From NCBI GenBank assembly GCA_044892505.1, contig CM097882.1, positions 460,660,001 to 460,724,000 on the forward strand: a stretch of 64,000 nt of DNA, given 5' to 3'. A program made the position numbers and the translations under genes. Shown here one piece after another: positions 13,845 to 41,767 of the stretch; positions within the stretch are counted from its first letter, which is position 1; each line of letters begins with the position of its first letter. Below the pieces are notes generated by a model. That model had not been told where the DNA came from. It saw only the letters and a program-made list of their open reading frames with translations, and ran no database searches. This DNA comes from Schmidtea nova. Lineage: Eukaryota.

Positions 13845-16759
13845 TTTTTATCTAAATTTTTTACGTTAGATTATAAGTGTATATATATATATATATATAT
13901 ATATAATGATTTTATTAAAAATATTTCAACTAAAATTATCGTATTACAGTATAATACAAGAAATTTAGAAAAATTCAAATTCAAAAGGTATTCCTTATTG
14001 TATTTTAAGTTGTATCAATAACTAAATTATTTACAAATAATGAGTTCGAATCTCAACTAAAATAACTAAAGCAATTACTTATCCTAAGAATAATTTTTTT
14101 TTAAGTACACGAATTCTTGGCTGAAATTTTTCAAGTGTAAATAAACACTTCATAAATGCTGTGTCGAAAATTCATGTACATATAAAAAAATATTACATCT
14201 TGTCAAAAAAAAGATATTAATTTCTGAAAAAGATAAGACTAAAGGTGAAAAACACGAGATATTAATAAAATAATTAGAGTAACTAAATGTCGATACTTTG
14301 CATAATTGCATAAATAATTGCATAATTGCATAAATAATTGCATAATTGAAAATATTAAAAAAATTAAATATTTTTAAAATCTATTTTATCAAAGATTAAC
14401 GCTCAAAAAGTATAATTATTGAAATATCTATTTCGTATAATGTATTAAAAGTATTTGCGAATTTCAGCCTAGTGAATTAAAACACTTTATACATAATTCT
14501 TGAAGTTTAATGACAAATATTAGAATTAATAATTAAATTTTAAAAAATTACTTACTATAATTTAAAATCATTTTTATTGATAATTTTAAACAAACGTCAT
14601 AATTTCTAATTTCATTATTTTTTTAAATTAAATGTTAAACAATTTTTTATGTGTTTTTTTCAATAATTTAATTTTTAATTATTTAACAAATGACAAATGT
14701 ATTATGAATTTTTGCAAGAAATTAGACTTTTTTTTGCAATATTTTAATTTTACATTTGAGACAAGAAAATATTGATATTGGTGGGTTGTTGATCGTCAAT
14801 ATGACCTTGACGTTGCTATGGCTCGTATCAACAACTCAACATACAAAACATTGAAATAACCATATTGTTACCCGTCACTATGTAACGTTGGTACTGTAAC
14901 AAGTGGGTGGGTATTCGCAATCAGTGAGCGTCGTCAATACGAAACTATGATTGACCGAATATCTCCTGGGTCCAAGAGCTACCGATAGAAGGTTTAATGC
15001 ACATTTTGTCCTTCCTATGCATTATTTGACTGCAGATATATATTTTAAATTAACCAAAAATGAAGTAATTTCGTCAATTGAAATTTATTAATTTGTCCCA
15101 ATCAATCATTATGCACGGTATTATCTAAATTCTCGGGAACTTTTGCACATTTACTCTATTCGTAAGCTCGTACTCAAACATATCATCGCCAACTCAATTC
15201 GGGGATCAATTATTCCTTCAGAAAATGCATATATATTTGGGAATATACAAATTTACCCTTATTTAGACCCAAGATTTTATTATTCTTGCGATTTTCTTAA
15301 ATTATTATGTCTTTTATATTTAAAATTCAAGTAAACTTTATTTATATCTTAATCCTATTGTCTATCTTGCTCTAAATTTATGATAGAATATTTATTAAAA
15401 TTTCAACATTTTAATTTTGAAATTTTGCCGAGGCCTTGGTAACGAAATTGATTTAGTAAAACTTCTCTAATTTGGTTTTAAGTCAAAATATTATAAAATT
15501 TCTCCTGAAATATCTTAATTAGTTTATAAAAATTATTGATCTTAAATGCAAAATTTTTAAACTGATTCTATTTATATAAATTCCTAGTATTTAGTCTTTT
15601 TTCTTTTCTCTTTTATTTTGTTTAAAAGAAAACATTAATCAACCTGATTGGTTGATTTCTTATATTATGGAATGACTTCATATAATAAGGATATTGATCG
15701 ATTATTTTCAAAAAAAGAAAAATTTGAATTTCTTTAATTTACATGTTCAAGTAAGAATTTTATTTCATTAATAATTTTCGTGAGTTACCGTTGTATTTTT
15801 AGGAAAAATCTAGCCTTTGGAATCAGTCCTTCTACCAACCTTTACATAACTGGAATTATTTATTTGCCAAACCTTGGAATTTTATATTTGATATTTTCGA
15901 TTGTTTCTTCTCTCTAATGGACTGCCAAATAAATTTTCAGTGTTACATTTTCCTCTTTTATTTTAGTGATTAAAGAATACGTGTCACCGATTCGTTTTTC
16001 AGATTTTAAGGCATTTTCATTATACATTAGGCGTTTCCCTCAATATGGGTTAAATTTTATGAATAATCTAATTAAAAAAAATATCGATTATCCATAATTT
16101 AAGAATCTAACGTGAAATTTGACTCATGAAGGGCTTTACGATATAGGCACCAAAGTGACAAACTGAGTTTTCATGAACAAGGTTTACAGTAATGTAGAAA
16201 ACTAGGAACAATGTGTTGCTAAATTTCTTTTAAAATTTTACTTGACGTTTAAATATTTCGGGTATCTCAGATATCAATTTTTTGCAATTTGTACTGTTAA
16301 AGTTGTCCGGTGATGTAAATTGATGATTGCATGAGATGGTTGGGAGTTATTCAGGACGTTGAGAGTATTGTGTTGAATGAGATGAGTTTGTTGGGCCAGC
16401 CAAATCGAGCAGCATCTGAAAATAATACACAATCAATAAAATAAATTAAATACAGAATAACAACAAAATAAATTACCAACACCAAAGCGTAACAAAATAG
16501 GCGGCAACATCTAAAAGAAATAAAATATTTTTCAAAACAACAAAAATCTTCAAAACTCACTCATGCGAAGCAGATAAAATTGGAATATGACAGCGCGTGG
16601 GCGGATGTCACCGAAGACCTAAAGCAAAATCAAATAAAAATTAAATCATACAAAAAATAAACTTACCGCATGATTAACCAAACAAATCGGCAAGTTAAGT
16701 TAGGCAGCAAAAAGCCGACAACATGAAAAATGAAGCAAACATACACACATACTCGATGC

Positions 16760-16900
16760 TGATTGGCTAACCAACAACACCGGTTGAGTATAAATACTGA
16801 AGTCAAATCAGTATTTGACAATGTTATTTTTACCAAGTGTAACTTGCAGTTGAGCACTGAGAACATTGTAAATCCAACTTGAAGGAGAAATAAAAGGTAA
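16760..16900 (+). promoter_or_regulatory. Candidate LTR promoter (ATTGG box, TATAAATA, Inr-like TCAGTA) followed by AATAAA and a 5-prime splice donor
   Basis: GATTGG at about 16761, TATAAATA at 16789-16796, TCAGTA at 16808-16813, AATAAA at about 16889-16894, AG|GTAATT with GT at 16897. Other TATA-like sites exist at 17836 and about 19629, so U3/R/U5 limits are not established. Confidence 0.4.
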
Positions 16901-17900
16901 TTGTTGTGTGTTAGATTTTTACTTTAAACCCTCATAATTATAATGGTTAACCATATTAAAATCCATAAGGTTTCCGGAGGCCTAACAGCCTGACGGATTC
17001 TCTGGCCTCTCAGCGCAACACAATCTTTCGGTTGTGAGGTGCTGATGCGGCGGGACCATAGGTGTATTAAATATTTGGAAAGCGGAAGGGGTTAAATGCA
17101 CATAGGGTATCGAGTAAGACCTAATGAACATGAACGAAATCAAGGTGGAAATGATCTAATATAAACGTTATGCATCACGATGATAGGGTATCGAGTATAA
17201 ACTGGTAGTCGTAAACGAGCGTAAAGTGAAGCCCGTTTTGTAGGGAGGATATATATCGTGGCGAAGTCTAGGCGAGGGATAGACGTGTAGAAAATAAAAT
17301 TGGTGTAGATGAATTAGATGACGACAAGGGTAGGTATATGTCGACATTAGCGCGTACGAGTTCGGGCATAGTGAACCTAGTATCAAGGGTTAAGTCAGTT
17401 GTGTTTAGTCGCCAGGATAGATGATAAATAAACTACAGGCATTGAGAACCGATAAAATGATGAACCCCAGTGAGTAAGGACCCCAGGAACTTGCAAGAAT
17501 TACCCGACATGGTATGATCATTACTAGTTAAATGAGGAAGTAATCGAAAACGACTGATGAGATTGGATGTGATTAAATAGCATTATCGATAAATAAAAAC
17601 TGTTAAAGTTGAGTGATTGAACCTGATTGTTGAAAATTAAGTATAATAGTGATCTGATTTATAAATGCAACCAATCGTGCGTAGCGGAATCGTCGAAAAT
17701 AAAACGCGTAGCACATTAACTTCAAGCTACCATCTAACACGACCCACGTCAAGTCCACAATGATTCCGGCAACAATCTAGAAGGTACCCCTCGGACCTAC
17801 AGACCTTAAAAATTTAAGACGGGTGGGTTGACTAATATAAATAGGCCCGTTATACCATAGAATCCATAGTTAACAAACAACCATCTTCTTTAGAAATACT

Positions 17901-18536
17901 ATGGTGAAACTAGAGAATCTCCAAAGGAAGTCGATGATCGCGCACCCGATAAAGATAGAGGACACCATCCTTCGTAAGAAACGGCGCACCCGCTCCGTCA
18001 TCCGACCAAATACGAACCCAAACATCAGAGGAGAGAACGAAGCACCTCGAAAGGTTGCAGAAGTATCACGTCGCCACCTACGACGGTGGATGAGGGCGCA
18101 CATGAGCTCGGCAGCTAGTACCCCAGCTTGTGCGTTCGGACTACAGTTGCGGTGGGAAGGAGACACCGATTGGGTACCCTCCTCGGATCATAGCAAGCCG
18201 GAGAATCCCCGATGGTTCTATCAATTCTGCGATGAGTTACAGCAACCCCGCTGGCTGCTAAGCACCGGAATGATGTCCGGAAAAGAGCTACATCAACTCG
18301 GATACACGCTGCTAGACAGGCCTCGGTGTGGCGACACTGGGGAAGTCTTCGTTTATTCAAACGCGCCAGGAAGCGTGTCCTTGGACCAACACCCCGAGCC
18401 CAAAGACCATCGTCTCTGGGAGGTATTCATCTTTCGGGACAAGTTAAGTTGGAGCCCCGCCCCGGAGTTCTATTACGAAAGTGGAATCCGTCGTGATGAG
18501 AACACGGCCGACCAGGAATTGCGACCCTTCATCTAA
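17901..18536 (+). CDS. LTR-encoded ORF-A, 211 aa, unknown function
   Basis: Intact ATG-to-stop ORF, identical in the other LTR. CTTTAG acceptor-like site 7 nt before the ATG and AATAAA at about 18585. Confidence 0.65.
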   Translation: MVKLENLQRKSMIAHPIKIEDTILRKKRRTRSVIRPNTNPNIRGENEAPRKVAEVSRRHLRRWMRAHMSSAASTPACAFGLQLRWEGDTDWVPSSDHSKPENPRWFYQFCDELQQPRWLLSTGMMSGKELHQLGYTLLDRPRCGDTGEVFVYSNAPGSVSLDQHPEPKDHRLWEVFIFRDKLSWSPAPEFYYESGIRRDENTADQELRPFI

Positions 18537-18728
18537 ATCGCAAGGAAATCGATCACTCGAAGGAATATTTGATGTGTATTAAAAATAAATGTATTCATTT
18601 TTTGGGTTTTGTTATGTCTTTGAATGTATGGAGCGATCTGAGAGCGAAACACCTGTTTGATAATAAAGATAGTGACTGGGAGAACAGACAAACCATACAT
18701 AACCCGATTAATTGTACATTTTACAGAT

Positions 18729-19292
18729 ATGAGTGAACACCCAACTAGGAACTACAAACAAGAGGCTAAAGAGCACAAAGTACGATCGCAAGTCCTAGAA
18801 AACCGCTTGCGACAGCTAAACGAAGAGCACCAGCGGATTAAAGACACGTGGTTCAACCCAGAGAGGGTTAAAACCATCCTGCAAGCCAGATACAGGGCGG
18901 AACGAACAATCGACGAGCAAGCTAGGGAGGTAGCAGCACTAAAGATGGAGCTGTCGAATTACTTGAGGGCATCAACCCAGGAATTTATCAACGAGCAATT
19001 ACGCCCAGTGATCAGGGCTAGCACTTTTAACCGATGGGTGAACTCAATATCGATGACAACAAGTACCCAAACGGAAATAGAAACCATCCCAATCACAACT
19101 ACCCCAACATCCCCAATAATTCAGGAAGGCTCGAAACGAACAAAGAGACGGAATCGCTTGGGAGCGAAAAAGCGTAGGGAGAGACGCGCGTATGCAGATC
19201 GCGTAGGAATAGAGGTAGACTTGCTCAGTGGTCTATCTGAGCAAGAACTACTAAATGTAATCCGACCCTCTGTATTATTAAACTATAAATAA
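18729..19292 (+). CDS. LTR-encoded ORF-B, 187 aa from the first ATG; coiled coil plus basic NLS-like C-terminus
   Basis: TTTTACAG acceptor 2 nt before ATG 18729. A diverged homologue at 59490-59630 is 28/46 aa identical over the C-terminus. Confidence 0.75.
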   Translation: MSEHPTRNYKQEAKEHKVRSQVLENRLRQLNEEHQRIKDTWFNPERVKTILQARYRAERTIDEQAREVAALKMELSNYLRASTQEFINEQLRPVIRASTFNRWVNSISMTTSTQTEIETIPITTTPTSPIIQEGSKRTKRRNRLGAKKRRERRAYADRVGIEVDLLSGLSEQELLNVIRPSVLLNYK

Positions 19293-19682
19293 ATGTATAA
19301 AATGAATGACTTGACTCGTCTTGTCTGTGTGTAGAATGTCTGAAAATTGAATGGGACTAAAACCCGGATTCGTTTAAACTGCAGATATCTAAAAAGTAAA
19401 TTACCCTAGGACAATAGAAAGGAGCATAAGTGGGACCGAAAGAAAGCCACAGACACCTTCTAACGGTAGTGGTGGACCCGTGAATAAACAAGGGAATAGT
19501 AGCCGAAAGGTTGCTCACCTGCCTTGTCATTTCACAACGTTGACACAGCACCAACATGATGAGTAGTTAGGGATACATCATGGGTGTCAGCGGGGAAATG
19601 TTTTTATGTTGGCGAGATCACCCTAACATATAAAATCCTAAGGATCTCAGTTGTCAATCCAACCAACACACCAGCATAAATT

Positions 19683-19700
19683 TGGGGGCTCAGCCGGGAT
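19683..19700 (+). promoter_or_regulatory. Primer-binding site complementary to the tRNA-Pro 3-prime end
   Basis: TGGGGGCTCAGCCGGGAT, 6 nt after the LTR end. 16/18 identical to the canonical tRNA-Pro PBS TGGGGGCTCGTCCGGGAT. Confidence 0.88.
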
Positions 19701-20230: not shown

Positions 20231-20689
20231 ATGGAGAACAAAATAAAAGAAATGCAAACGTTTTTCGAGACAAATAACGAGACAATGGAGATAACAATGA
20301 GAAAGTTAAGACGACTCGAGGCAGGAGGATATCACAAACCGACAAACAGCACAGAAAAAGCGGAAATGATGATGAGCATAAGTAAGAATAAGATAACAGT
20401 GGATACAGCAACACGATATCAGTGGTATAGAGAAAGATTAAACAACCCTGAGATGAATATCGAGTGCCACAGGCTAGAACAACAAATTGCAACCAGACAC
20501 GATGAGTGGATAAGAATAACAACCGAACATACGAGACAATATCTGACGTGGTACATCTGTGAAATGAATAAGATACAGATAATGTTGTTGCCGTGTGGGC
20601 ATTTCCGATTCTGTAATGAGTGTAAAATAAATGAACGATGTCCTATGTGCAACCTTCCCGTATCCGAGAAAATAACAGTGTACTTGTAA
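20231..20689 (+). CDS. Small protein with a C-terminal IAP-type RING finger (no BIR), upstream of gag
   Basis: WYICEMNKIQIMLLPCGHFRFCNECKINERCPMCNLPVSEKITVYL matches the C-terminal RING pattern C..C......F.PCGH...C..C.....CP.C plus hydrophobic tail. The first Cys is replaced by Trp. Confidence 0.75.
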   Translation: MENKIKEMQTFFETNNETMEITMRKLRRLEAGGYHKPTNSTEKAEMMMSISKNKITVDTATRYQWYRERLNNPEMNIECHRLEQQIATRHDEWIRITTEHTRQYLTWYICEMNKIQIMLLPCGHFRFCNECKINERCPMCNLPVSEKITVYL

Positions 20690-23597: not shown

Positions 23598-26500
23598 ATG
23601 AGTGAACACAGAGAGGATCTGAGAGAAAAATTCAAGGGCGAACCATTTAATGGAGACGCCAGTAGATTAGACACGTTTCTAAAGGAATTTGGCATATTCG
23701 TGGATATATGCGGATGGAGTGCAGAAACGTTAGCGAATCGAATCCCGCTATACTTGAAAGATAGCGCGTTGGATCTGTATATCGAAAAGAGATCTGGAAG
23801 TAGTCCACCCAGAACGTGGGAAGCAATCAAGGAGTTCTTCCAACAGACGTTTGGGATAAATAAAGTGCTGAATGAAGCATTCGATGAGTTTTCAGCAAGA
23901 AAACAAAGGAGAAACGAGTCAAACGCGGTGTACGCAAGTGAATTAAGAAAGTTGGCGAAACTGGCGTTCAACAGAGGAAGCCCAGTAGACGAAGAATTGA
24001 TGACAGCGTTATTCGTACGAGGTCTCAGGAGACCTGACATCAGAGCACAAGTGGGATGCAAGGGATGTAAAACAGTAGATGAAGCGTTGGAAGCAGCCAA
24101 CCTATTCGAATTGCATATGGCAATGAACGACATGAGAATTACGGCGGTAATGGGAAAAACGACAGAAGATGAAGAACAAGGAAAAAGAAACATGAATCAG
24201 AGTATTCCCCATTCACAGAGATTGTTCAAAGAACCGCCAGCGCGGAAGAATAACGGATATATCACGGTGGACCCGAATGGAGGAAATAGCTACAATGACA
24301 GGCAGAATAGGCAATGTCAGACGTGTGGAAAAAACGGACATTGGCAACAAGAGTGTTTTCAGAATGTAGCCTGTAAACTGTGTGGACAAAAGGGTCACTC
24401 AGAAAATCGATGTTATGGGAAAACGTGTTACACATGTGGAAAAACCGGACACATGTCAAGAGACTGTAATCAACAGAGAAGTTGGTCAAACAGTGGAAAT
24501 AGACCGAATTACGGGAATCGACCAAGCTATGGGAATCAGGGTCAACAACGGAATAACCCAAACAGCAGTGCAAATGAAGCCAGTATGAAAGAAGCCAAGT
24601 TGAGACAGGAGGTATCCAGATTACACGAGATAATCGAAAGCATGGCAAAGGGAAGCCAGCAAGCGGCTCAACCAAAGATAAACATGATCCAGTTAATAGA
24701 AGCTGAGGCTGAAAGAGAAAATAGGGAGAGCCAACAGAAACATAATCAAGAATGGGCTAGAGTACGACGAGAAGAAGAACAAGTCAGGCAACAACGATTA
24801 CAACAGTTAAAAAAGGGAAATCCAAGGATCAACATGATGCGAGCAATGATGGAAGAGAAGCAGCAAGATGAGTCAGACGAGTTAGAAGTTAAAGAGAAAA
24901 GAAACGAAGAGCAGAAACAAGAAGAAGTGAATCAGGAAGTGGAAACTGCGGAACAGAGTAAAAAAGATGAAGAAGCAGAAAAAGAAACGAATCAAGAAGA
25001 AGAAGTGAGAATTAAACAAAGAGGAATGTTAGTGATCATGCCGAATGATCACGTGTGGCGATTCAAATACGATGTAAAAGAAGAAGTGGGAAGATTGTTC
25101 AATAAAGTAAATGAGATGATTCCGGGAGTAACGAAACTACCCAGAGAAGCATTCCTACAAACAGAGGATTTGCCAGAAGTGAAGTTAAAGATGACCGACA
25201 TATGGGAAGATATGGGAGTAACAGAGACGAAAATAAACGTGATGATCATCAGAGAGGTGGAACCGGAGAAAATCCCACCACCAGTGAAACATCAAACGCG
25301 TATCAGTAGAATATTTAAAGGAAAAATAAGACGAAGACGGATGGAAGAAATAGAAGAGTTAGAGAAAAGAATGGGAAAAGCTGAAATAACGGGAACCGAG
25401 AAGGAACTAATACAGGAAGTTAGCAAAAACGAAGCGAGACCAACCGCGCATATTGGGATGCTGAGATACCCAAGACAAGAGTTGTCAGATGAAGAAGACG
25501 ACAGCGAAGTTAGCAGTCTGGCAGGAAACATGCTAAAGGAACCGGAAAACGAGGATAAAAAGATGGAAGTAGTCGAGACGATAGAAACGATGTCAGTAAA
25601 GAAAGAGGAAATTCAGAAGCTGATGGATAACGCGTTGGAAGTAATCCATAACGAGGAGTTTATCGACGGGAAACGATACCGAAAGTTTATACGAGCAGTA
25701 TGGCAGATAAAGTATAAAGAGTGGTTACAAGAAAGAGAAGTGAGGGTAATACAAGAGTTCATAGAGAAGTTATTGAAAGAACCACTCAACGAATACGTAA
25801 TACAAATATGGATAAACGAGTGTTCACCGAGAATCTGGATAAGGAACCCAATGACGGATGGAATTTACAGATGGGTTGAGGACAGATTGGGAAGCTCGTA
25901 CAAAGACAAATTCATATATTCGGAAAACGGATTGGTGAGAAAAGGAACGCATATGATAGACACAGGCATATGGCCAGGAGAAATAACGACGTTATCAATA
26001 TGCAACACCAAAAAGGAAGAGAACTTACAAGGAATCGTCAAAGAAGCGAATACGTGTTACGAGATGAGAATAAAACCTCAGTTGATAGAGGCAAAAGAGA
26101 GAATCTTGGCGGAGAATTTGAATACGATGATAGAACAGATCATCCAACAAATCAAGAAACATCGAAAGGAATTGACGAAAAGCGAGTATGAGAATTTGAA
26201 GCAGTGTATCGAGAACATACGAGATACAAGTCAAACGAGACACTCAAATTTCAAAACGGACAAGCTAATTGCCAAGATGGGAAAAGAAATGTTTAAAAGA
26301 GGAGAGGTATCAGATCTGAAGATTACCGTGAGATTGCCGAACGAGGAGACAAGACAAATTGAAGTAATACCAGATAGTAAAGTGGGAGAAATAGTAGATG
26401 TCATCAATGAGACGATATTACAACGAGAACGGGAAGACGAATTCGAAGATGACATTGCGATAAAATACAAAGAACATATACTGAACGAACGTGACGAAAG

Positions 26501-29500
26501 ACGAGCGTACAAAATCGGCATATGGGATAATTATCAGACAATACATGTCATCAGAATGGATGACGTGCCAAGAGCAACACCAAGAGATGAGGAAAGGAAA
26601 AAGAAACGACAAGAGGACGTTATGCGCAAGTTGAGACAGATAGTGGAAATCTATCGGAACTGGCAGATGAAGCCAGAATGGGAGACAATATTGGGAGAAT
26701 TAGATCTTAACAGACGACGATTGACGCCAGTAGAGAAGCAATGGGATAACAAAGAGAAATGTTGGAAAGTGAAAAGAGGCGTGTATGAAGAAGATCCAGA
26801 AGAAGAAGACAGATATGAACTGAATACGAAACGGATATGTATGGTAACAAGGAGGTTATTACCAACGGACTTAGACGGACCAGAAACTGCAGTAATATGG
26901 GCAGAATTGGAGAAACAGAAAACGAGTGAATTAATCGAGCTGTTAAGAGGAAATACTCGGGGAAAAAGACAAACAATAAAAGGCTTAGCACAATTCATAA
27001 TCACAAATGGAGAAGACATAACGAACTTGAGAAAAGTAGCTAAAGCGATAGCAGAATACAAGAGAGTTAACGAGTGGTGTCCAGAGCAACTAGACGATGT
27101 AATAAAAAAGTGGAGAAACAAAGAGTTTGCGGAGGAAACGCCACAGAAAATACATTTGAGGATAATGTATCCGAATCAGAGAAAAGAAGAGTTTTGGGTG
27201 ATGCTAACAGAGAAAGTGAAAAGTATTAAAGAGAAACTGATGTATGAACTACCATTCCACCTGCAACATCAAGGACGATCGTTGGATAATAGTTTGGAAA
27301 TCTGGCTGACACCAGTACAATTGGATTTAATGAATACGCTAACAGTGGCACAGATAGTGGGTCAACCACTGAAGTTTAAAGAGGAAAAGAAAACGAAAGG
27401 AAGCATGAGTACACCGAGTCCGATGAAGTCAACAATGACCCCAGGAACAAGTTCGGGACAAGCAAGGACAACACCAATAAAAACGAGAGAGAGAACACCG
27501 CCAGAAGCGTATGACGTCGATGAGATACTAACAGATAGTGATGAGGCGATAGAAGAATTAACGAAGTTGACTCAAAAACCAACAGCGAACATTTTCGACA
27601 GAATAATAGAGATGCCAATAACGTCACCAGCAGAAATCGACGATCAAGGAGTGGAACAGGAGGTAGTCATAGAAATGGTAAACGAATCGGAAGACGAGCA
27701 AGAACAACCACAGTTTACTCAAGAAATGGAAAGATGGTTAGAACAGCGAGCGAACGAAGGAAGAGATGTTACGGAAGAAACAGGAAGAGCAACGAGATTT
27801 GTAGAAACCGGAACTGGAATGGAAAAACGACCAAGAGGAAGACCAAAGATAGATCCAACAACAGCAATTCCAAAGACAAGGGAAGAAAGGAGACAAGAGC
27901 AATGGGAGATTTGCTTGAAGAAACTGGATAAAATTGCAGAAATCAGAGGAAAAGAGGAGAATCAAGTTTGTCAAGGAGAAGAATGGCTCACCAAAACGAT
28001 AATGGATGTGTTAGCGATAATTGATCCAGAATTAAAGAATTTGTGGCGAATAAACGAACCTAGTACAAAGGCAAGGATGCTACACAATGCAATAGCACCA
28101 ATTATGCCAGAATTGATAAAGGCAAAAACAAAATCGAATCATCTAGATTGGCAAGGAACCACGATGTTAATAAAAAGGCTACTTAACGGAGCAGAAACGG
28201 ACAGCAAATATCTAGTAGCAATCTCGTATACGATATACAATTTGTTAACGCTAAGCCGAGGAAGTCCGAAGTCAAGTCCGATGGGAAGACATATCAAGAA
28301 CACGGCGATGATTATCGAGAAGGAAATTGAACCATATATCCTCAGAAAAGGAGGATGGGAAAAGTTCATAAAAGAGAACCAGACAAAAGAAGGGTCTAAC
28401 GTGATGAGAAAGAAACTCGAAGGAGTATTGAGGGAAATGGAGAATAGACAAACGATGCAAGGAAACGGAAGATCGACGTTGAATCTAAATTCGATAATCA
28501 TGATGATGTTAGTATGGTTGTTAAGCACGGAAGGTGTAACAACATTTGAAGTATTTGATTGTGATCAAATGAAGTTAGGAGAAAAGTACTCATTGAGAGG
28601 TACGGAGCAATGCAAAGATGCAACTCCAGTAGAGTTGAGAGAGATCAAAAAGGAACAATGGTATAACGTGTATCAAGAAGCAGAACTAATAAAGACAATG
28701 GTGAATGAATGCAAAGTGCAAAAGACGAGATTCGCATTCTATTGTGGGAGAGGACATTACTCAGCAATTGTCATGCCAGGAACGGAAAGAGAACCAATCG
28801 TGTTACAAGGAGAAGATTGTGAAGCATTGTTTAAACATGGAGAAGTAACAACAAGGGATAAAATCAAGATAAAAGGAAAACCAGGAATGATGTTACAGCA
28901 GACGTATTATGTAGCAGGACGAATTACGGGAGGAGAAGGGTATTGTCAAGGAGAAACCTACCCAATATTTGGAGTACCTGCGACCAACTTAGTGGTAATG
29001 GATACGTACATAGTCGAACTGAAAAGTTACGAAGCATTCTTCGAACCAACAACAGGAGAAATGAAAACGTTATCCATGTGTAAAATTGACAGAAGCATGT
29101 GTCAAACGGGAATGTCAACATTGGTGTATAAACCAAAAGTGAACGAATGTCAATTACAACTGCTACAAGGAGCAAAGTTCGACGAAATTCAAGGAAAAAC
29201 ATTCCAAGAAGAAGATGATGATGACAAAGCTAGAGCAAAACATCTCAAAGAGGCTTTAGAGAATAAAAGACAATTGAGACCAGATCATAAAGAAAAACGG
29301 ATAGAGATGAGAACCACACCAACAGTGTTGATAACCACAAATCAGGATGTGGGCATGAGATTCATAAAAGGGAAAGCAACCCTTAAGTGCAGTACAACAG
29401 TATACGAAACAAATTATCCAGGAATATACGTGTCAAAGCAGGAAGTGCCTAATGCGAAACCCAAGATCGACACAATGGATATCAAGCTACACTTGTATGT

Positions 29501-31823
29501 GAATAATAAAATGGATTTCTTATTCCATAGAGGACAAGCCTCATTACAAAAAGTGTACTATGATCTGATAAATAACGATTGTATACTGAATCGGGAAATA
29601 TTAAAGACAAAGTTGGCCGTAGCGATTACGAATCCAGATAGCGCGATGCCGTTATTACCACTGAGAGAAGGACATTTCGGAAGAGTGGTCGGAGAAGCAA
29701 TGTACGTATACATTTGCGAAAAAACACACGCATCGCTAGCAGCAACAACGCAGTTGAAACCTGGACAATGTACAAATGAATTAGAAATCGATTATAAAGG
29801 AAAAGTACGATACGTTCAACCGGTGACGAGAATCACCAATCCACCAGGGTTTGAACCAAATCCATTCAACTGTAGTAATGCGTACGGACCACTTTATCAG
29901 AAGCCAGATGGCAAATGGGTTATGTTCCCAGGAAGAACCGAAGTATTAGCACCAAGAGAATTCGAACTAATGCAGTTGTCAAAGGATAGACAGTTCAGCG
30001 ACGTAGATGTCTCAAACAACGGAATCTATAGTCCAAAGGATTTAGAAGCAGCAAGACAGAATATACTATTCCCGGCAAGAAGAGAAGCATTACTGTCAAA
30101 TATCGTAACGATAACGGGAGGAACGAATTATCGAGAAGGACCAAATTACGAACTGCTGTTGTCACCGGCACATTTCAAGAAAGCCACAGAAAATATGATG
30201 AAGGCAATGTGGGGGAGATTCCTGATATTCGGACAAATGATGGCTGGAATACTGGGTGTTATATTGATAATACAAATCGTCAGAGTGATAATAACGCAAA
30301 TGTTAGCGTGTTTCGATATCTACAAAAGAGAAAAGAAAGTGAATTGGAAGATGGTAGTAGGATTTTTACCATTCCTTGCGAAAACGATGGTGTTACACGG
30401 ACACTCAAAAGACATACATCGAATAAAGAGGTTGTTGAAGATACTTGCAAAAATGAGAGGAACAAACGAAGATGTCGGAAGGAAATTCAAAAAGATAATG
30501 CAAGACGAGCAAGCAAGGCGACAATTAAAGAAAGAAAGGAAAGGATTATGGGAAAGAGTGAGAGGATATCGAACGCAGGATGACTCAAGCAATGATGATG
30601 ATGATGATGACAATCGAGGAGGACAAGCGAATATAAACCAGATTCCACAATACACCGAAAAGAGTGCAGTTGAGAATTGGAGATACAGCGCTCCACCTCA
30701 GTCAATGTATAACGAACCGATATACAAAGCGAAGCCGAATATGATGCAGATGATGCCGATGACAAGTATATACCCGATAATTCCAGAAGGATGCAAAGTA
30801 AAACGATGCAGAAGTGTAGACCCGTTGGAAGACACGCACACGATAGCGGTTATGTCCACAAATATGGGACCGATTTTAACAACAACCGTAGAAATAAACG
30901 GAAGAGAAATTGAAGCTATGATCGATACAGGCGCGAATATTTCGGCGATCGACATCAACTATATACCAGAGAAAAGCCAAGGAGAAATTGAGAAAACGAA
31001 TGTACATGTAATCGCGTGCAGCCAAGAGACAGTAGAAGTAGCCGGAAGATGGTTCGTAAAAATTAAGCATCGAGGTGCAGAAATCAACACGTACATCGCT
31101 GTAATACCATCGCTGAGTGTACCATGTATTATTGGAACTGACCTGATGCCAGACCTGTTCAAGGAAATCGTAATTGATCTAGGAGCAATGAAACTAAAAG
31201 ATAGAACAGGAAAAATCTGCAGGATGAAAGTTAAAGTGGCAAGTGCGGAACAAATAGTAGTACCAGCGAGACACGAAATGATGTGCTATGTCAAGATCGA
31301 TTCAACAATAAAGGGAGATATGATATTCGAACCAAGTAAGAAGTTCGAAGCAAAGAAAGAATTACCAATGGCAAGAGAATTGGTTACGATAAACCAAGAA
31401 GGAGAGATACCAATTAATCTGGTAAACTTCGATGAAGAGGACAAGATAATATACGAGAATGAGAGATTGGGTAAATTGACACCCATGTCCGAAATCGAAA
31501 TACCAGACAAGAACGAGAAAAGCAAAGACGAATTACCATGGAAAATCGACAGTGTGTTGTTAGACGAACGACAAAAAGAACAGTTACAAAAACTGTTGAT
31601 GGAATATAAAGATATATTCGCAGCATCCGATTTAGATCTGGGAACATGTGATGTAACATTACACACGATACCGTTGACGGACGAAACGCCAATCGCATTA
31701 CGACCATACAAACTGGCAGAAGCTCAAAAAGCAGTGGCAGAAGAAGAGGTACAAAAGATGTTAGATGCAGAGGTCATCGAACCTAGTTGCTCACCCTGGC
31801 AATTCCCAGTGGTGATGGTGTAA
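23598..31823 (+). CDS. Polyprotein part 1: Gag (capsid, 3 CCHC knuckles), ubiquitin-like domains, AT-hook, Bcl-2-like domain, class III envelope, aspartic protease, start of RT
   Basis: Capsid-like FNGDASRLDTFLKEF. Knuckles CQTCGKNGHWQQEC, CKLCGQKGHSENRC, CYTCGKTGHMSRDC. AT-hook KRPRGRPK; BH2-like YILRKGGWEKF; protease MIDTGANISAI. Ends at a TAA inside the RT motif PVVMV*KKDG. Confidence 0.92.
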   Translation: MSEHREDLREKFKGEPFNGDASRLDTFLKEFGIFVDICGWSAETLANRIPLYLKDSALDLYIEKRSGSSPPRTWEAIKEFFQQTFGINKVLNEAFDEFSARKQRRNESNAVYASELRKLAKLAFNRGSPVDEELMTALFVRGLRRPDIRAQVGCKGCKTVDEALEAANLFELHMAMNDMRITAVMGKTTEDEEQGKRNMNQSIPHSQRLFKEPPARKNNGYITVDPNGGNSYNDRQNRQCQTCGKNGHWQQECFQNVACKLCGQKGHSENRCYGKTCYTCGKTGHMSRDCNQQRSWSNSGNRPNYGNRPSYGNQGQQRNNPNSSANEASMKEAKLRQEVSRLHEIIESMAKGSQQAAQPKINMIQLIEAEAERENRESQQKHNQEWARVRREEEQVRQQRLQQLKKGNPRINMMRAMMEEKQQDESDELEVKEKRNEEQKQEEVNQEVETAEQSKKDEEAEKETNQEEEVRIKQRGMLVIMPNDHVWRFKYDVKEEVGRLFNKVNEMIPGVTKLPREAFLQTEDLPEVKLKMTDIWEDMGVTETKINVMIIREVEPEKIPPPVKHQTRISRIFKGKIRRRRMEEIEELEKRMGKAEITGTEKELIQEVSKNEARPTAHIGMLRYPRQELSDEEDDSEVSSLAGNMLKEPENEDKKMEVVETIETMSVKKEEIQKLMDNALEVIHNEEFIDGKRYRKFIRAVWQIKYKEWLQEREVRVIQEFIEKLLKEPLNEYVIQIWINECSPRIWIRNPMTDGIYRWVEDRLGSSYKDKFIYSENGLVRKGTHMIDTGIWPGEITTLSICNTKKEENLQGIVKEANTCYEMRIKPQLIEAKERILAENLNTMIEQIIQQIKKHRKELTKSEYENLKQCIENIRDTSQTRHSNFKTDKLIAKMGKEMFKRGEVSDLKITVRLPNEETRQIEVIPDSKVGEIVDVINETILQREREDEFEDDIAIKYKEHILNERDERRAYKIGIWDNYQTIHVIRMDDVPRATPRDEERKKKRQEDVMRKLRQIVEIYRNWQMKPEWETILGELDLNRRRLTPVEKQWDNKEKCWKVKRGVYEEDPEEEDRYELNTKRICMVTRRLLPTDLDGPETAVIWAELEKQKTSELIELLRGNTRGKRQTIKGLAQFIITNGEDITNLRKVAKAIAEYKRVNEWCPEQLDDVIKKWRNKEFAEETPQKIHLRIMYPNQRKEEFWVMLTEKVKSIKEKLMYELPFHLQHQGRSLDNSLEIWLTPVQLDLMNTLTVAQIVGQPLKFKEEKKTKGSMSTPSPMKSTMTPGTSSGQARTTPIKTRERTPPEAYDVDEILTDSDEAIEELTKLTQKPTANIFDRIIEMPITSPAEIDDQGVEQEVVIEMVNESEDEQEQPQFTQEMERWLEQRANEGRDVTEETGRATRFVETGTGMEKRPRGRPKIDPTTAIPKTREERRQEQWEICLKKLDKIAEIRGKEENQVCQGEEWLTKTIMDVLAIIDPELKNLWRINEPSTKARMLHNAIAPIMPELIKAKTKSNHLDWQGTTMLIKRLLNGAETDSKYLVAISYTIYNLLTLSRGSPKSSPMGRHIKNTAMIIEKEIEPYILRKGGWEKFIKENQTKEGSNVMRKKLEGVLREMENRQTMQGNGRSTLNLNSIIMMMLVWLLSTEGVTTFEVFDCDQMKLGEKYSLRGTEQCKDATPVELREIKKEQWYNVYQEAELIKTMVNECKVQKTRFAFYCGRGHYSAIVMPGTEREPIVLQGEDCEALFKHGEVTTRDKIKIKGKPGMMLQQTYYVAGRITGGEGYCQGETYPIFGVPATNLVVMDTYIVELKSYEAFFEPTTGEMKTLSMCKIDRSMCQTGMSTLVYKPKVNECQLQLLQGAKFDEIQGKTFQEEDDDDKARAKHLKEALENKRQLRPDHKEKRIEMRTTPTVLITTNQDVGMRFIKGKATLKCSTTVYETNYPGIYVSKQEVPNAKPKIDTMDIKLHLYVNNKMDFLFHRGQASLQKVYYDLINNDCILNREILKTKLAVAITNPDSAMPLLPLREGHFGRVVGEAMYVYICEKTHASLAATTQLKPGQCTNELEIDYKGKVRYVQPVTRITNPPGFEPNPFNCSNAYGPLYQKPDGKWVMFPGRTEVLAPREFELMQLSKDRQFSDVDVSNNGIYSPKDLEAARQNILFPARREALLSNIVTITGGTNYREGPNYELLLSPAHFKKATENMMKAMWGRFLIFGQMMAGILGVILIIQIVRVIITQMLACFDIYKREKKVNWKMVVGFLPFLAKTMVLHGHSKDIHRIKRLLKILAKMRGTNEDVGRKFKKIMQDEQARRQLKKERKGLWERVRGYRTQDDSSNDDDDDDNRGGQANINQIPQYTEKSAVENWRYSAPPQSMYNEPIYKAKPNMMQMMPMTSIYPIIPEGCKVKRCRSVDPLEDTHTIAVMSTNMGPILTTTVEINGREIEAMIDTGANISAIDINYIPEKSQGEIEKTNVHVIACSQETVEVAGRWFVKIKHRGAEINTYIAVIPSLSVPCIIGTDLMPDLFKEIVIDLGAMKLKDRTGKICRMKVKVASAEQIVVPARHEMMCYVKIDSTIKGDMIFEPSKKFEAKKELPMARELVTINQEGEIPINLVNFDEEDKIIYENERLGKLTPMSEIEIPDKNEKSKDELPWKIDSVLLDERQKEQLQKLLMEYKDIFAASDLDLGTCDVTLHTIPLTDETPIALRPYKLAEAQKAVAEEEVQKMLDAEVIEPSCSPWQFPVVMV
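27960..28380 (+). other. Bcl-2-like domain within the polyprotein
   Basis: BH2-like EIEPYILRKGGWEKFIKE (compare W I xxx GGW xx F). Weaker BH1-like segment IKRLLNGAETDSKYLVAISYTI at the expected spacing. Boundaries approximate. Confidence 0.6.
28488..30320 (+). other. Envelope glycoprotein, chuvirus-G / herpes-gB-like class III fusogen
   Basis: Signal-like SIIMMMLVWLLSTEG, then FEVFDC...EQC and a Cys-rich ectodomain. CILNREILKTKLAVAITNPD...GHFGRVVGEAMYVYIC and GIYSPKDLEAARQNILFPARR resemble chuvirus-type G motifs. TM segment FLIFGQMMAGILGVILIIQIV. Boundaries approximate. Confidence 0.8.
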
Positions 31824-34376
31824 AAGAAGGATGGAACTCAAAGATTCTGTATCGATTACAGACGATTGAATGCAGTTACGAAAAGAGATACGTACCCATT
31901 GCCAGACATAAACGAAATGTTGTTGACGTTACAAGGAGCAGCTTATTTCACGTCACTGGATTTAAAGAGCGGATATTGGCAGATCAAAATGAAAGACGAA
32001 GATAAAGAAAAGACAGCATTTACAATCGGACGAGATCTGTACCAATTCAAGAAAATGCCGTTTGGGTTAACAAACGCGCCAGCATCATTCCAGAGATGCA
32101 TGAATTTCGTAACACATGGCATAAAACAATGCATGGTGTATATCGACGATCTATTGATCTACTCCGCAACATTCGAAGATCACTTGCAAGACATCAGAAA
32201 TGTGTTCGTGAAATTAAGACAATGGAAACTGAAATTAAAGCCGTCAAAGTGCGATTGGGCAAAAGAAAAAGTGACATTCTTAGGTCACATTGTCTCAGCA
32301 AAAGGAAAAGAACCAGATCCAAGGAATATCGAAAAGGTCAAAGAATGTCCACCACCAAAGACAGTGACTCAAATACAAGAATTTTTGGGATTGTGTGGAT
32401 ATTATCGAAAGTTCATCAAGGACTATGCAGGAATATCAAAGCCAATGCAAGAATTAGTAAGACAAGACGTGTCGTTTGTGTGGGGAGCAGAGCAACAAGC
32501 AGCATATGAAATATTGCGAGACAAACTGATTACAGCACCAATATTGGTCCATCCAGATTTTAAGAAGCCATTTTTGTTGGCAACAGATGCAAGTGGATAC
32601 GCAGCAGGAGCAGTACTAGGTCAATTTGACGAAGAAGGCAAGGAAAGAGTAATCGGATATTACAGTCGAACCTTCAGGAAGCATGAAAAGAATTACTCAG
32701 TCACGGAAAGAGAAGCCTATGCGATAATATTGGCAATCAAGCATTTCAAATACCTATTGTGGGGTCATGAGATATATATTACAACGGATCATCAACCATT
32801 GGTATGGTTAGGTCAACATAAAGAATCATCAAGTAGATTGATGCGTTGGGCGATGCAACTACAAGAATACTCGCCATTCATAAAGTTTAAAGCAGGAAAA
32901 GCAAATGCAAACGCGGATTGCATGTCAAGGTTTACATTTCCAGAATTGGTGAACCTGAATGCTCTAAAAATATGTGCATTAATAGCGGAAGATTTGGATT
33001 TCAGCGAATTAAGGAAAGATCAACTCGAAGATGAGGAGTTGGGATTGATCAGCAAGTATTTGAAAGAAAGGGAAATAGAAATATTCGGCAAGAACCAAGT
33101 GTTGCGCGAACATATGCAGAAATACCAACATAGATACGTGATGGAAAAAGGATGGTTATTGATACAAGATGGAGAACGGAGATTAATGTGCTTACCTGCG
33201 AATAGGCGAAAGGAAATCATGACTCAATATCATGACGGAAAATTAGGCGGACATATGTCAGCAAAAAAGACAAGCGGAAGACTGAGACAAAAGTATTTTT
33301 GGCCAACCATGGAAGATGATGTGAAAGAATGGATAAAGAACTGCTTAACCTGTGCGACAAGAAAGAACGTCGGAACGAAGTGGAAAACACCACTAAAACC
33401 AATGCCAATACCTGCAGAACCGATGGCGACGATAGCAATGGACGTAGTTGGGCCATTGCCGGAAAGTTTAAAAGGAAATCAGTACATATTAGTAGTCACG
33501 GACTATCTAACAAAGTTCCCAGAAGCGTTCGCAATACCAGATCAAAAAGCAAAAACAGTCGCGAGAATATTGGTGGAAGAGATATGCTGCAGATACGGAA
33601 CACCAAAGAAAATCCTAACGGATCAAGGAACAAATTTCATGAGTGAAATATTGGACGAAGTTACGAATTACTTCAGAATCGCGAAATTACGAACATCCCC
33701 ATACCATCCACAAACGAACGGTCAAACAGAAAGGTTCAATGGAACATTGATACGCATGTTGTCGAATTACGTCAGTAAACATCAAACTGACTGGGACGAA
33801 TATATCAACTTATGTTTGATGGCATACAGAATGTCAATTCATGCGGCAACAAAGCTAAGTCCATTTCAACTGATGTACGGAAGAGATTGCAACTTACCGA
33901 TCGATTTGGAATACCAACCACCATTATCACAGTACATGGAGGTTGACGATTACGTGACGAAGTTCAAAGAAAGAATGCAAGAAATCTGGAAAACGGCGGA
34001 ACTGAACATCAAGTTCTATCAAGAAAGTTATAAGGATCTCCATGATCAGAAAAAGAATGTGAAAGCACATGATTTAAAAGTTGGAGATTGGGTGATAATT
34101 GAGACACCAGAGATAATACCCGGTACGGTCAAGAAACTCCAACGACCAGGCAAGGGGCCATACGAAATAACAACCGTAAACGAAAACAATGTGCGAGTAC
34201 GATTGGTGAACAATCCATTGGTAAGACCAATATACGTGAATGCATGTCGATGCAGGAAAATACCAAAGACAGCAACTCTATTACCAGAGAAACGGGTAAT
34301 GACAAGATCACAGACGGCGAGAATTAATATGTTGCGAGTACAACAAAAGCCGCAAACAAGTCTAGAAGACAAGTGA
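31824..34376 (+). CDS. Polyprotein part 2: RT, RNase H, integrase (same frame as part 1)
   Basis: RT: RFCIDYRRLN, DLKSGYWQI, MPFGLTNAPASFQR, YIDD. RNase H: TDASG, TDHQPL. IN: H..H/C..C, DVVGP, TDQGTNF, ERFNGTL, GPY. Confidence 0.96.
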   Translation, partial: KKDGTQRFCIDYRRLNAVTKRDTYPLPDINEMLLTLQGAAYFTSLDLKSGYWQIKMKDEDKEKTAFTIGRDLYQFKKMPFGLTNAPASFQRCMNFVTHGIKQCMVYIDDLLIYSATFEDHLQDIRNVFVKLRQWKLKLKPSKCDWAKEKVTFLGHIVSAKGKEPDPRNIEKVKECPPPKTVTQIQEFLGLCGYYRKFIKDYAGISKPMQELVRQDVSFVWGAEQQAAYEILRDKLITAPILVHPDFKKPFLLATDASGYAAGAVLGQFDEEGKERVIGYYSRTFRKHEKNYSVTEREAYAIILAIKHFKYLLWGHEIYITTDHQPLVWLGQHKESSSRLMRWAMQLQEYSPFIKFKAGKANANADCMSRFTFPELVNLNALKICALIAEDLDFSELRKDQLEDEELGLISKYLKEREIEIFGKNQVLREHMQKYQHRYVMEKGWLLIQDGERRLMCLPANRRKEIMTQYHDGKLGGHMSAKKTSGRLRQKYFWPTMEDDVKEWIKNCLTCATRKNVGTKWKTPLKPMPIPAEPMATIAMDVVGPLPESLKGNQYILVVTDYLTKFPEAFAIPDQKAKTVARILVEEICCRYGTPKKILTDQGTNFMSEILDEVTNYFRIAKLRTSPYHPQTNGQTERFNGTLIRMLSNYVSKHQTDWDEYINLCLMAYRMSIHAATKLSPFQLMYGRDCNLPIDLEYQPPLSQYMEVDDYVTKFKERMQEIWKTAELNIKFYQESYKDLHDQKKNVKAHDLKVGDWVIIETPEIIPGTVKKLQRPGKGPYEITTVNENNVRVRLVNNPLVRPIYVNACRCRKIPKTATLLPEKRVMTRSQTARINMLRVQQKPQTSLEDK

Positions 34377-34484
34377 AGGGAGATAATAGACATCAAAGAA
34401 CTGGCAAAGAAAACCAGAGAAATTATACCAGAATGGAAATGGTGGCACGATTTCAATATACTGTCAGAAGTTCGAAAGAATGTA

Positions 34485-37400
34485 ATGGACTATGCGAAGG
34501 ATAGAACAGCACATCCAATAACAAGAACGCTGCTAGAGGAAATCCCTCAAACTTTGAATCTACAAGACAAAGACGGTAATACCGCGTTGCACAATGCAAT
34601 CAAGCACAGTGGAAACGAAAAAGTGAAGGAAATTGTAGAGATGATACTCGAAGGTGGAGGAGAAATTGACAAAGTGAATTGGGAAGGAATCACTCCACTT
34701 ATGATGATGACGATTCACGGAAGAAACGATGAAATAATCAAGCTATTCGGAAACACCAGATCGAATTGGATGGCAAAAGATAAAGAAGGACGAACATTCT
34801 TGAATCATGCAATTGACAGAGCAAATCACCGAATACTGAAGTATATTATGGAAAATGCCACGTGGGAAATCGATGAACTAACCAGAGGATCTATCATGAA
34901 ACAAGCAATCGGGGTAAAGAACAGTAAAACCTGGAGAATATTGCTAAAGTGGAAACGACCAGAAGGAGATTCGTGGGTCATAGATTGCAATGAAGTATTC
35001 ACAAGAGGAGAAAATGCGTTACTGAAACATCTATTAGAAGTAACATACGATCCAAAAACACTTGCAGTGTTGATAGCGAGAGATACGTTACGGGTTAGCG
35101 AAAACCCAAGAGAATACAAGTTGGAAGACAGAAAGAAAGAACTATTCGGATTAATCAAGAAATGGTGTGATAAACAATGGAATCCGGATATGAGCTTCGA
35201 ACATTTCTATGACATCCAAAAGCAGCACAAAGAAATAAGCAAGCGATATAAAGAGCTGATAGAAGCATTGAAATATGGACAGTTCTTCAGACAAGCAGTG
35301 TATCAAGACCAACGAATGAAACAGATGCAAACGCGAATAAGAAGCAAAGCAGTGTTGTTCAATGCAAAAGCTGATTATCAAGAGAGATTAGACGCAATCG
35401 TAGCAAAAGCACAGGAAAAATTATCGGAATTCAAAGAGAATAAAAACTCGTTGGAAATACTAGGAGCGATTACAGAGAAAGTGCACAGATATGCACAAGG
35501 GGATTATAACGAGATCGACATAGAAACGATCAAAAATCAAATGCCAGTGGCATTCCTATTATCAAAGGATGGGAGATTGCCGATACACTGGGCATTACGT
35601 CGAAAGAAAGAAAACGAAGTGCTGGAAATAACGAAAGCGATGGTCAAGTGCGAAGCAGACATGAATACGGTTGACGATAACGGAGATACAATCATGATAA
35701 TCGCAGCAAGAAAGAAGACGAAATGGAAAGTGCTAAATGAATTATACGAAGCAGGAGCAAAAATCGAAGGGAAAAATGGAAAGAATAATTCCATCATAGA
35801 TATCGCAATACAGTGGAACAACTTCGAGATGATCAAGTTCATAAAGTCCATCAAGAGACAAGAGGACATAGAATACCTGGCAAATAACGTAAAGAAGTTC
35901 AGCCTGACAGTAATGATACACGACATAGAGAAAACAAGAGCATTATTAACATGGGTGAATCCGAGCACCAAGGAACAGGCGTTCAAGGTCAATGACCATA
36001 TGGAACAGAATCAGAATTGGTGTATCAGAAGCGCGTTATTAAGACACAAAAAGCCAGAGATAGTAGAAGAATTCTTAAAGAGAAGAGATGTGAAGTTCAC
36101 GAACAATCCAAAGGAACCCGAACGAACGGGAAGATGGAAAGACTTGTTCAGGAAGTATGTGAATGAGTGGGCAAAAGCCAAAGAAACGATCAAGCAAAGT
36201 AGACTAAAAGACATAGAACCATCCAAAGATATGGAAATACGGGAATTCGAGTCTAGCACACTCGCGGTTCAAGCGTATGAAAGATTGATTGAAGAAATTA
36301 ATGTCGAGGACGACATTTTCAAAGGACCAGGGGGTGGTTACAGAGATTTCGACGACAAAAGCAACAACGAAGAGAACAACGAAGACAAGGACAACAAAAG
36401 AACGGAGGATAATGAGAAAGAAAGACAAGAAGAACCGAAGTCAACGAGAAACGACAAGAAAGGAGAAGCAGAAGAACGAGAAAACAGTGGAACAAAAGAC
36501 GAACATGCGAATTATGGAAAACGAACAGGAAGTCTACTTTTGAGACCAGAAATGTTGTGTATTGCGATATTGATAACAATCATCGGACAAGGAGAAGCCA
36601 AGAAACAATACGTCACGCTAGAGATAATCAGAGGAAATGAAGTATACGAAAGAATATGCTGGAAAGAAAACCTGAGGAAAAACGATACGCTGAAGTGTAT
36701 ATTGTCAGATTTGAAGCGAGACGTCATCCAAATCAAAGGATTGGAGAAAGAAAAGTCATACATAATATGCGCAATAAAGCAGAGAGGAGAACCAAAAGCA
36801 CCTCAAGTAACTGCATGCCAATTATACAAAGCAACGGAAGCGCTGAAGATACAGAAATGGATTGAGAAAAGAAGCGAAGAGACAACGAGAAGAACAGAAG
36901 TGGAATCAGAGAAAGGGAAGAATCAATCTGAAGCAGAAGAAGGAATCAGAAACCGAACAGAGAAAGAAAGAATAACCAAAAATCCAGCGGGCAAATTAAC
37001 ATTCCAACCAGAATTGATATGTGTAGCATTAATATTAATCCTCATTAAGAGAATCATGGAGGACATAGATATCAGCGTGATGACGTTAGTAAACATCCAA
37101 GATCAACGAACAACGAATGGAAGATGTTGGGGACGAAACAATGAGGTAATTGGAATCAGCGAAACAAGAGAAATAGTAGAGGCGGAGACAAATGAGGAAA
37201 TAGAGATAACTGAAATGGAGACAGATAGAAAATGTGAACTATGTCTCATGGAAAAGGCAGCAAACGGAAACAGACCAGGAACAAGCGAGTGTAAAGTGTT
37301 CCAAGCAAAGGAGATAATTGAATTCCCAAAAAGAAAGAAACAAGATCAAGAAACGATTGCGAATGAAGTAGTAACCGTGGAGATAAAAAACATTGGTCGG

Positions 37401-38939: not shown

Positions 38940-39031
38940 TGAATAAGCGGAAAACTGTGTAAATACGTGTAAATAAAGAACCAGAAAAAAAATCAAAAAT
39001 ATGGAGAAATTGATGTAAATATTGTTGTAGA

Positions 39032-40444: not shown

Positions 40445-40533
40445 TCAGAGTGAACGACCCTGTAAATAAAGTGTAAAAATTGACAACAACAATAAACGTA
40501 TAGTATAACAAGTGTAAATTTGTAAATTACAGA

Positions 40534-41694: not shown

Positions 41695-41767
41695 AAAGAG
41701 GCGAAAAATCCGTGTGTAAAAATGTACAAATCGATGTAACAGGTATTAATCAGTAGAATAATCAGAA

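Follow-up and report, generated by a model that had tools for sequence, protein, structure and literature searches.

In lentiviruses, nef only overlaps U3, and Rev and Tat are spliced regulators. Genes lying wholly within an LTR are known mainly from MMTV, whose sag gene is placed entirely within U3 of the 3' LTR in the relevant part of PMC3621094. In foamy viruses, a major splice donor in the R region controls the choice of poly(A) site, as described in the corresponding portion of PMC3694450. The giant Gypsy-like elements of planarians, Burro and GYPSM1, are set out in section 7 of PMC6431247, which mentions accessory ORFs, none of them inside the LTRs. Passages of PMC8532177 and PMC13465017 deal with the expression of Burro1 and its role in regeneration.

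The window analyzed here (the whole stretch of DNA, 64,000 nucleotides) contains at 16389-45785 an element which, judged from its sequence organization, is a Burro-like giant Gypsy retrotransposon. Its features are distributed as follows:

16385..16388, plus strand: 4-bp target-site duplication AGTT, with its partner at 45786-45789
16389..19676, plus strand: 5' LTR, 3,288 bp, TG...CA
17901..18536, plus strand: ORF-A, 211 aa, wholly inside the 5' LTR
18729..19292, plus strand: ORF-B, 187 aa, wholly inside the 5' LTR
19677..19700, plus strand: PBS-like motif directly after the 5' LTR
20231..20689, plus strand: internal accessory ORF for a RING finger, provided with an acceptor-like AG and a poly(A) signal of its own
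23598..38465, plus strand: coding region for Gag, fusion glycoprotein, protease, RT/RNase H, integrase and ankyrin, broken into three pieces in the window copy
38589..42292, plus strand: four internal accessory ORFs in a row (coiled coil, TRAF, coiled coil, predicted transmembrane), with a YAG just 5' of each ATG
42498..45785, plus strand: 3' LTR, 3,288 bp, 99.8% identical to the 5' LTR
44010..44645, plus strand: ORF-A copy in the 3' LTR
44838..45401, plus strand: ORF-B copy in the 3' LTR

With a total length of 29.4 kb and an internal region of 22.8 kb, the element has the size by which Burro-like elements were recognized (about 30 kb or more in total, internal region up to 25 kb), and its anatomy suggests a planarian host. 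The PBS-like motif is one that we take to be tRNA-Pro-like. The polyprotein region is broken in the window copy; sibling elements have open frames of about 5,090-5,140 codons across it, and through these frames the Burro-like polyprotein (about 4,900-5,100 aa, with Gag, PR, RT, RNase H and IN in Gypsy order) is recovered. Pfam domains of the element are Gag knuckles, protease, RT, RNase H, integrase, ankyrin repeats, a RING ORF and a TRAF ORF, the MATH/TRAF, ankyrin and RING cargo of Burro-like elements being all present, and BIR and BCL2 gave no match in the element (Pfam, E 0.1). An env-like component, a Monjiviricetes-type fusion glycoprotein, lies in frame between Gag and PR (PF24664, E 1.9e-67). 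Self-comparison of the LTR pair revealed 6 mismatches over 3,288 bp, one of them inside ORF-B, and the insertion is very young. Five of the six differences fall in two clusters (19655-19660 and 16530-16531), which suggests template switches during replication, not point mutations. Among 150 scored RNase H matches, 116 had at least 92% identity and 34 corresponded to a sister family at 89%. Degenerate tandem repeats occupy 21400-22720, within the long non-coding stretch 5' of gag.

Other features were observed in the window. At 10501-13283, inverted repeats of 202 nt surround a 625-aa RT ORF (11241-13118); this unit is presumably Penelope-like, and next to it a minus-strand ORF (13257-13844) looks to us like a PP2C phosphatase exon. 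Inverted repeats of 386 nt (99%) at 61653-64000 enclose a 471-aa ORF with weak RING-finger matches below the Pfam cut-off. A short repeat at 14775-15011 has extreme read depth in all four DNA runs, far above the LTR, and is probably a very high-copy small element. The four sequencing runs carry the marks of DNA libraries, with transposase adapter ends and coverage of non-coding DNA; the lack of splice joints in them is therefore uninformative, and their depth ratios, which tracked GC content, were not used as evidence.

The initial annotation had described ORF-A and ORF-B as intact in both LTRs, each preceded by an acceptor-like AG and followed by the same signal. All of this is borne out: both frames are open at 17901-18536/18729-19292 and at 44010-44645/44838-45401, a YAG precedes the ATG by 7 nt in ORF-A and by 2 nt in ORF-B, and AATAAATGTAT is found at 18584 and again at 19288, where it overlaps the ORF-B stop. 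Intactness in two near-identical LTRs is little proof alone, and the genome-wide comparison is decisive. Searches of the source genome yielded 3,019 candidates for ORF-A, 9,177 for ORF-B and 2,900 for a diverged ORF-A; among the 150 scored from each, nearly all were stop-free. At 83 non-redundant loci (90 minus 7 duplicates), chosen from the best ORF-A matches and thus biased towards intact copies, ORF-A is open in 77 and ORF-B in 69, with an amino-acid identity among open copies of 68-100% and about 75-100%, respectively. A dN/dS near 1 across diverged LTR copies had been named as the result that would speak against the genes; the values are 0.19 for ORF-A and about 0.1 for ORF-B. More precisely, pairwise NG86 dN/dS is 0.19 for ORF-A (69 unique copies, 3 saturated pairs dropped) and, for ORF-B (60 unique copies; 115 of 1,770 pairs dropped as saturated), 0.064 overall and 0.095-0.114 at dS 0.1-1.2. 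Shifted frames gave 1.1-3.0, the exception being the antisense frame that shares third positions (0.36 for A, 0.21 for B). Branch-wise dN/dS was replaced by these pairwise values and by counts of private versus shared variants; variants shared by at least three copies show a pN/pS of 0.22 (A) and 0.09 (B). The choice of loci favours intact copies, yet a low dN at dS >1 is not producible by such a choice. On this comparative evidence, ORF-A and ORF-B are real LTR-resident accessory genes under purifying selection. The base composition of ORF-A (17901-18536) is distinctive, with a GC of 0.54 versus 0.39-0.41 in all internal genes and less A-biased third positions, hinting at a separate origin.

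Counterparts of both genes were identified in other LTR families. The sister family has LTRs of 3.24 kb (5' and 3' copies 99.9% identical in 3/3 elements), which give no blastn alignment with the window LTRs and carry ORFs of 158 and 194 aa at the positions of ORF-A and ORF-B. The 194-aa ORF is a clear ORF-B homologue (probability 98%, E 2.8e-14), and the 158-aa ORF a weak ORF-A homologue (E 3.3e-4, probability 38%). Locus L167 contains homologues of both genes (profile E 5e-9 for A and 2.6e-36 for B) and L168 a homologue of ORF-B (profile E 2.6e-29), the LTR extent of these two being judged by terminal motifs with no second LTR. The ORF-A proteins of the sister family and L167 match each other (E 1e-17); across families ORF-A homology is weak (hhalign probability 38% and 8%). 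By profile comparison, ORF-B homologues are found at the same LTR position in three further families, and ORF-A homologues, more weakly, in two. The PBS-like 18-mer occurs 2,964 times in the source genome; in a sample of 30, it is shared by seven or more LTR sequence groups. In the commonest PBS-sharing group (19/30 sampled loci), neither ORF-A nor ORF-B had a match in 5/5 loci tested, so the LTR cassette is not universal. A 190-aa coiled-coil ORF at L179:4925-5494, whose basic motif is faintly ORF-B-like (E 0.002), sits in a 2.5-kb insertion within another family's LTR and was not counted as a relative; one ORF-B PDB sequence search used a multi-family alignment still containing it. At L169:3496-3975, beside a truncated Burro-like LTR, a 160-aa ORF has a TATA-binding-protein domain (Pfam E 5.6e-17); it lies outside the L168-aligning part and probably belongs to a neighbouring or inserted element.

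To the source genome as a whole, exact-pattern counts assign 809 LTR-end motifs and 136 internal-to-3'-LTR junctions, and solo LTRs of the window family are estimated at about 500. We identified 43 true solo LTRs among 60 loci (mostly singletons), each flanked by matching 4-bp duplications and lacking a PBS; two of them share flanks. ORF-A is kept in 39, ORF-B in 34 and both in 30. Their private changes (56 silent, 126 replacement and 8 stop) fit the neutral expectation taken from non-coding LTR blocks (chi-square p 0.64). Since private changes are neutral and shared variants constrained, selection works in replicating lineages and not in the typical solo LTR. The initial annotation had seen in solo LTRs self-contained gene cassettes spread through the genome. 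As to content this stands, promoter, acceptors, both ORFs and poly(A) signals being present in true solos; a network maintained by the host does not fit, private changes being neutral. Solo LTRs would keep the cassette as by-products and then decay neutrally, and a few copies may be domesticated.

Two other explanations of the open frames were considered. If ORF-A and ORF-B were chance open frames within young, GC-richer LTR DNA, one would understand why neither homologue nor fold was found outside the source genome and why Atlas recognition is low; but a dN/dS of 0.1-0.2 with dS >1, the excess at third positions and the conservation at protein level between families whose LTRs do not align by blastn leave this reading with practically no weight, and dN/dS together with the cross-family homologues refutes it. 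Solo LTRs could also be gene cassettes maintained by the host, whose selection would keep the ORFs open. Both ORFs and all signals are indeed retained in 30/43 solos, and regeneration is reportedly aided by a Burro1-encoded protein, according to work cited in part of PMC13465017. Private mutations of the solos, stops included, nevertheless match neutrality, the sample is biased towards intact copies, and we regard host maintenance as very improbable. Purifying selection acting on replicating elements is the reading retained below.

Neither protein had been assigned to a family from the window sequence, and this holds after homology searches and, for ORF-A, fold searches. No homologues were found in protein-database searches (near-length proteins only) or in the Atlas, nor any match in PDB sequences, Pfam or PHROGs; the large-database searches used window-family sequences. 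P0001, the lone match among 1.84 billion representatives, is a tandem-repeat protein that owes its score to the summation of weak repeats, and it was rejected. ORF-A has a basic N-terminal stretch followed by a Trp-rich alpha/beta domain (helix and beta-sheet core; model pLDDT 50, low confidence). Fold searches with this low-confidence model gave no match (best Z 3.5), by which a new fold is neither shown nor excluded. That ORF-A is a small host-interfering interaction domain is our best guess, though one of low probability. The ORF-B model (pLDDT 68) consists of long coiled-coil-like helices, a disordered linker and a near-invariant Arg/Lys-rich helix; dN/dS of its C-terminal segment is 0.018, and all four families retain the basic motif. 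An STQT motif, present in 69/69 intact copies, stands at the start of the low-confidence linker, and the other families have CGT, IGT or KGT in place of TQT. LC8 sites have a TQT anchor in a disordered stretch beside a coiled coil, and we take the STQT of ORF-B to resemble such a site, through which ORF-B may be dimerised by the dynein light chain LC8. Dynein light chains (PF01221) have 61 matches in the source genome, about 20 of them full-length, clustered on one contig. By analogy with Rev, Tat or Tas, we favour for ORF-B the role of a dimeric nuclear regulator that would bind nucleic acid via its basic helix, at less than an even chance. These functional proposals are built on motifs. In bZIP proteins, a basic region N-x7-R precedes a leucine zipper; ORF-B of the window family has such a basic motif, but it was rejected as a bZIP, no zipper following the motif, the Asn not being kept in all families and FosB giving E 0.34 only.

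We then considered the signals through which the two genes could be expressed. Counts refer to 57 aligned LTRs, except those of YAG, which refer to intact copies (77 for A, 69 for B):

16762..16796, plus strand: promoter P1, inverted CCAAT box (57/57 LTRs) and TATA box (exact in 53/57)
16889..16915, plus strand: AATAAA abutting a donor-like AG/GTA (GT at 16897), then a GU/U-rich tract
16969..17054, plus strand: two predicted, conserved RNA hairpins, in which 6/57 copies have compensatory changes at two pairs
17836..17843, plus strand: second TATA box, 65 nt 5' of ORF-A, TATA-like in 55/57
17880..17893, plus strand: acceptor-like pyrimidine tract and YAG 5' of ORF-A, 76/77 intact copies, spacer 1-9 nt
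18584..18594, plus strand: poly(A) signal 3' of ORF-A, 52/57
18705..18726, plus strand: branch-point-like motif and YAG 5' of ORF-B, 68/69 intact copies
19288..19298, plus strand: poly(A) signal overlapping the ORF-B stop, 57/57
19454..19676, plus strand: near-invariant terminal block, two long hairpins covarying across families, third AATAAA at 19483

The CCAAT-TATA pair of P1, about 400 nt into the LTR with a predicted transcription start near 16815, recurs at that position in two other families (three in all). About 100 nt 3' of P1, inside a hypervariable stretch of 30-50% identity, the donor-like AG/GTA is present in 57/57 copies and the adjoining hexamer is AATAAA in 53/57, AATACA in 3 and AATAGA in 1; a covarying plus-strand hairpin sits just 3' of the donor. 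The segment 16889..16915 is predicted to be the donor of a leader exon and a possible end of R. A YAG is found 5' of 7/7 accessory ATGs versus 27% of the element's 697 ATGs (p about 1e-4), and that of ORF-A is retained while spacer length changes; the L167 homologue of ORF-A has no AG near its ATG. The arrangement suggests, as the simplest reading, one leader exon joined to alternative last exons. A short leader exon transcribed from the LTR promoter would probably be alternatively spliced onto the acceptor of ORF-A or ORF-B, each transcript ending at its own poly(A) signal, and this leader would also serve the five short internal accessory ORFs. Where it overlaps the donor, the AATAAA could act as a splice-or-stop switch of foamy-virus type, against which it must be said that the sister family lacks this hexamer at its donor. 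P1 may also start the genomic RNA, which would place both genes in R/U5, in the 5' leader copied first in reverse transcription. Taken as a whole, the model that combines selected accessory genes, leader splicing, an R/U5 position and an ORF-B regulator appears to us somewhat probable.

According to the part of PMC3601003 that concerns them, U3/R/U5 borders require RNA data. The comparison with sag and nef made in the initial annotation is right in that whole genes lie inside the LTR, and is less secure in the U3 position it implied: as the conserved promoter is upstream of both genes, R or U5 is at least as likely as U3. Several observations favour R/U5: no promoter other than P1 is kept across families, a conserved TATA is missing ahead of the terminal block in the window family, the AATAAA-donor-GU block resembles an R end with a foamy-virus-like switch, and at the predicted start site diversity rises from 0.07 to 0.25. 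We give this placement slightly better than even chances. The third hexamer (19483) is NATAAA in 9/9 aligned sequences, canonical in 4/9 and CATAAA or GATAAA in 5/9. A two-hairpin structure beside the PBS, seen at 19454-19600 of the window and in L133, L167-L172 and L175, covaries across several families. The RNA hairpins have no real match in Rfam, so the LTR hairpins are no known ribozyme.

Both the splicing and the placement admit another account. Cis-splicing from a P1 leader would not be needed if ORF-A were transcribed from the TATA box at 17836, and ORF-B and the internal ORFs were released from an operon-like transcript by spliced-leader trans-splicing, which flatworms are reported to use. 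The second TATA box is present in 55/57 LTRs and in the sister family, and the distance from a poly(A) signal to the next acceptor is about 55-140 nt; the donor-like site 3' of P1, unneeded for trans-splicing, is however present in 57/57 copies, and we consider this account improbable. The genes may otherwise be real and spliced from P1 but contained, like MMTV sag, in a 3-kb U3, the genomic RNA running from about 19430 to the hexamer at 19483 of the 3' LTR. Conservation climbs to 95-100% at 19430, the terminal block has a covarying leader-like structure adjoining the PBS (19/37 pairs), and NATAAA, partly buried in a stem, is kept in 9/9. The sister family, without AATAAA beside the donor, has a TATA-like motif about 50 nt before its terminal block. 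Moreover, a short strong-stop DNA is the usual case, and one of about 2.9 kb would be unusually long. The NATAAA in the terminal hairpin and the sister TATA-like motif both fit a classical short R-U5. Upstream of the block, however, a conserved TATA/CCAAT is absent in the window family, L167 and L168, and the hexamer, canonical in just 4/9, may be kept for structure. Linkage tests between the U3 and U5 models gave p 0.15-0.24, with no separation, and a Mantel test likewise placed no border. A U3 position is possible, and we rate it clearly below the R/U5 position, which we retain as the working placement.

The divergence of the cassette is particularly striking. Among 16 full-length elements, nine of which were picked for a diverged ORF-A, mean dS is 0.91 for ORF-A and 0.94 for ORF-B, compared with 0.17-0.21 for the internal genes: RING (12 elements), pol (16), TRAF and two other internal genes (15 each). 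At silent sites the LTR cassette is therefore about five times more diverged than pol. Divergence of pol from the window copy is 0.15-0.23 whichever cassette the element carries, and the cassette behaves as a single linkage block, with no coupling to the beginning of the LTR or to the internal region, the deeply diverged region spanning from the predicted start site to the terminal block. One could imagine that the two spliced genes lie in a 2.8-kb U5 leader copied as giant strong-stop DNA, and that co-packaged transcripts of old solo LTRs recycle alleles. This recycling, a speculation that we hold rather doubtful, would explain a cassette dS of up to 1.2-1.8 versus about 0.19 for pol in the same full-length elements. 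Whichever LTR model holds, such borders would result if template switching took place onto co-packaged transcripts of solo LTRs; the divergence might alternatively reflect balancing selection or exchange with unsampled families. If recycling is true, solo LTRs, which are old and number in the hundreds, constitute an allele reservoir for the active element, and recycling can be tested directly on the deep, modular diversity of the cassette.

Two conserved LTR genes in a Gypsy-type clade, possibly 3' of the main promoter, would alter our idea of what constitutes an LTR, and genes in R/U5 would test the possible length of first-strand DNA. Each solo LTR leaves a potential two-gene expression unit, several hundred of them from the window family. 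A Burro-encoded protein reportedly influences regeneration in planarians, so these two further orphan proteins under selection are tractable targets for RNAi.

Genes inside Burro LTRs are not reported in the literature searched, although the primary Burro papers may already show them; nor are LTR genes described in the consulted portions of PMC11410931, PMC13238120 and PMC3485330. The element is like Burro/GYPSM1, as these are presented in section 7 of PMC6431247, in its length of about 29 kb, its LTRs, its Gag CCHC knuckles, its mononegavirus-like fusion glycoprotein between Gag and protease, its RT/RNase H/integrase and its ankyrin, TRAF/MATH and RING cargo; it differs in that TRAF is here a separate ORF 3' of pol, and Pfam gave no match to BIR or BCL2. 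With plant Ogre and Retrosat2 (LTRs >3 kb) it has in common very long LTRs and extra orphan ORFs, which in those elements are situated in the internal region or upstream of gag-pol and not within the LTR, in the sections of PMC6431247 and PMC3485330 concerned. As with nef, Rev and Tat, the accessory genes are (predicted) spliced and near or in the LTR, and ORF-B has an Arg-rich helix; ORF-B gave no match with Rev/Tat-type regulators in PDB sequence searches. As in foamy viruses, a donor adjoins a poly(A) signal in both LTRs, but in the portion of PMC3694450 describing it the foamy virus donor is 5' of the signal, whereas here AATAAA comes first and abuts the predicted donor. ORF-A and ORF-B have no Pfam homology with Sag. 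Like MMTV sag, they represent whole coding genes in a long LTR, duplicated in both LTRs; unlike sag, they form a pair, belong to a Metaviridae-type element, have an acceptor and a poly(A) signal apiece, and lie 3' of a conserved promoter.
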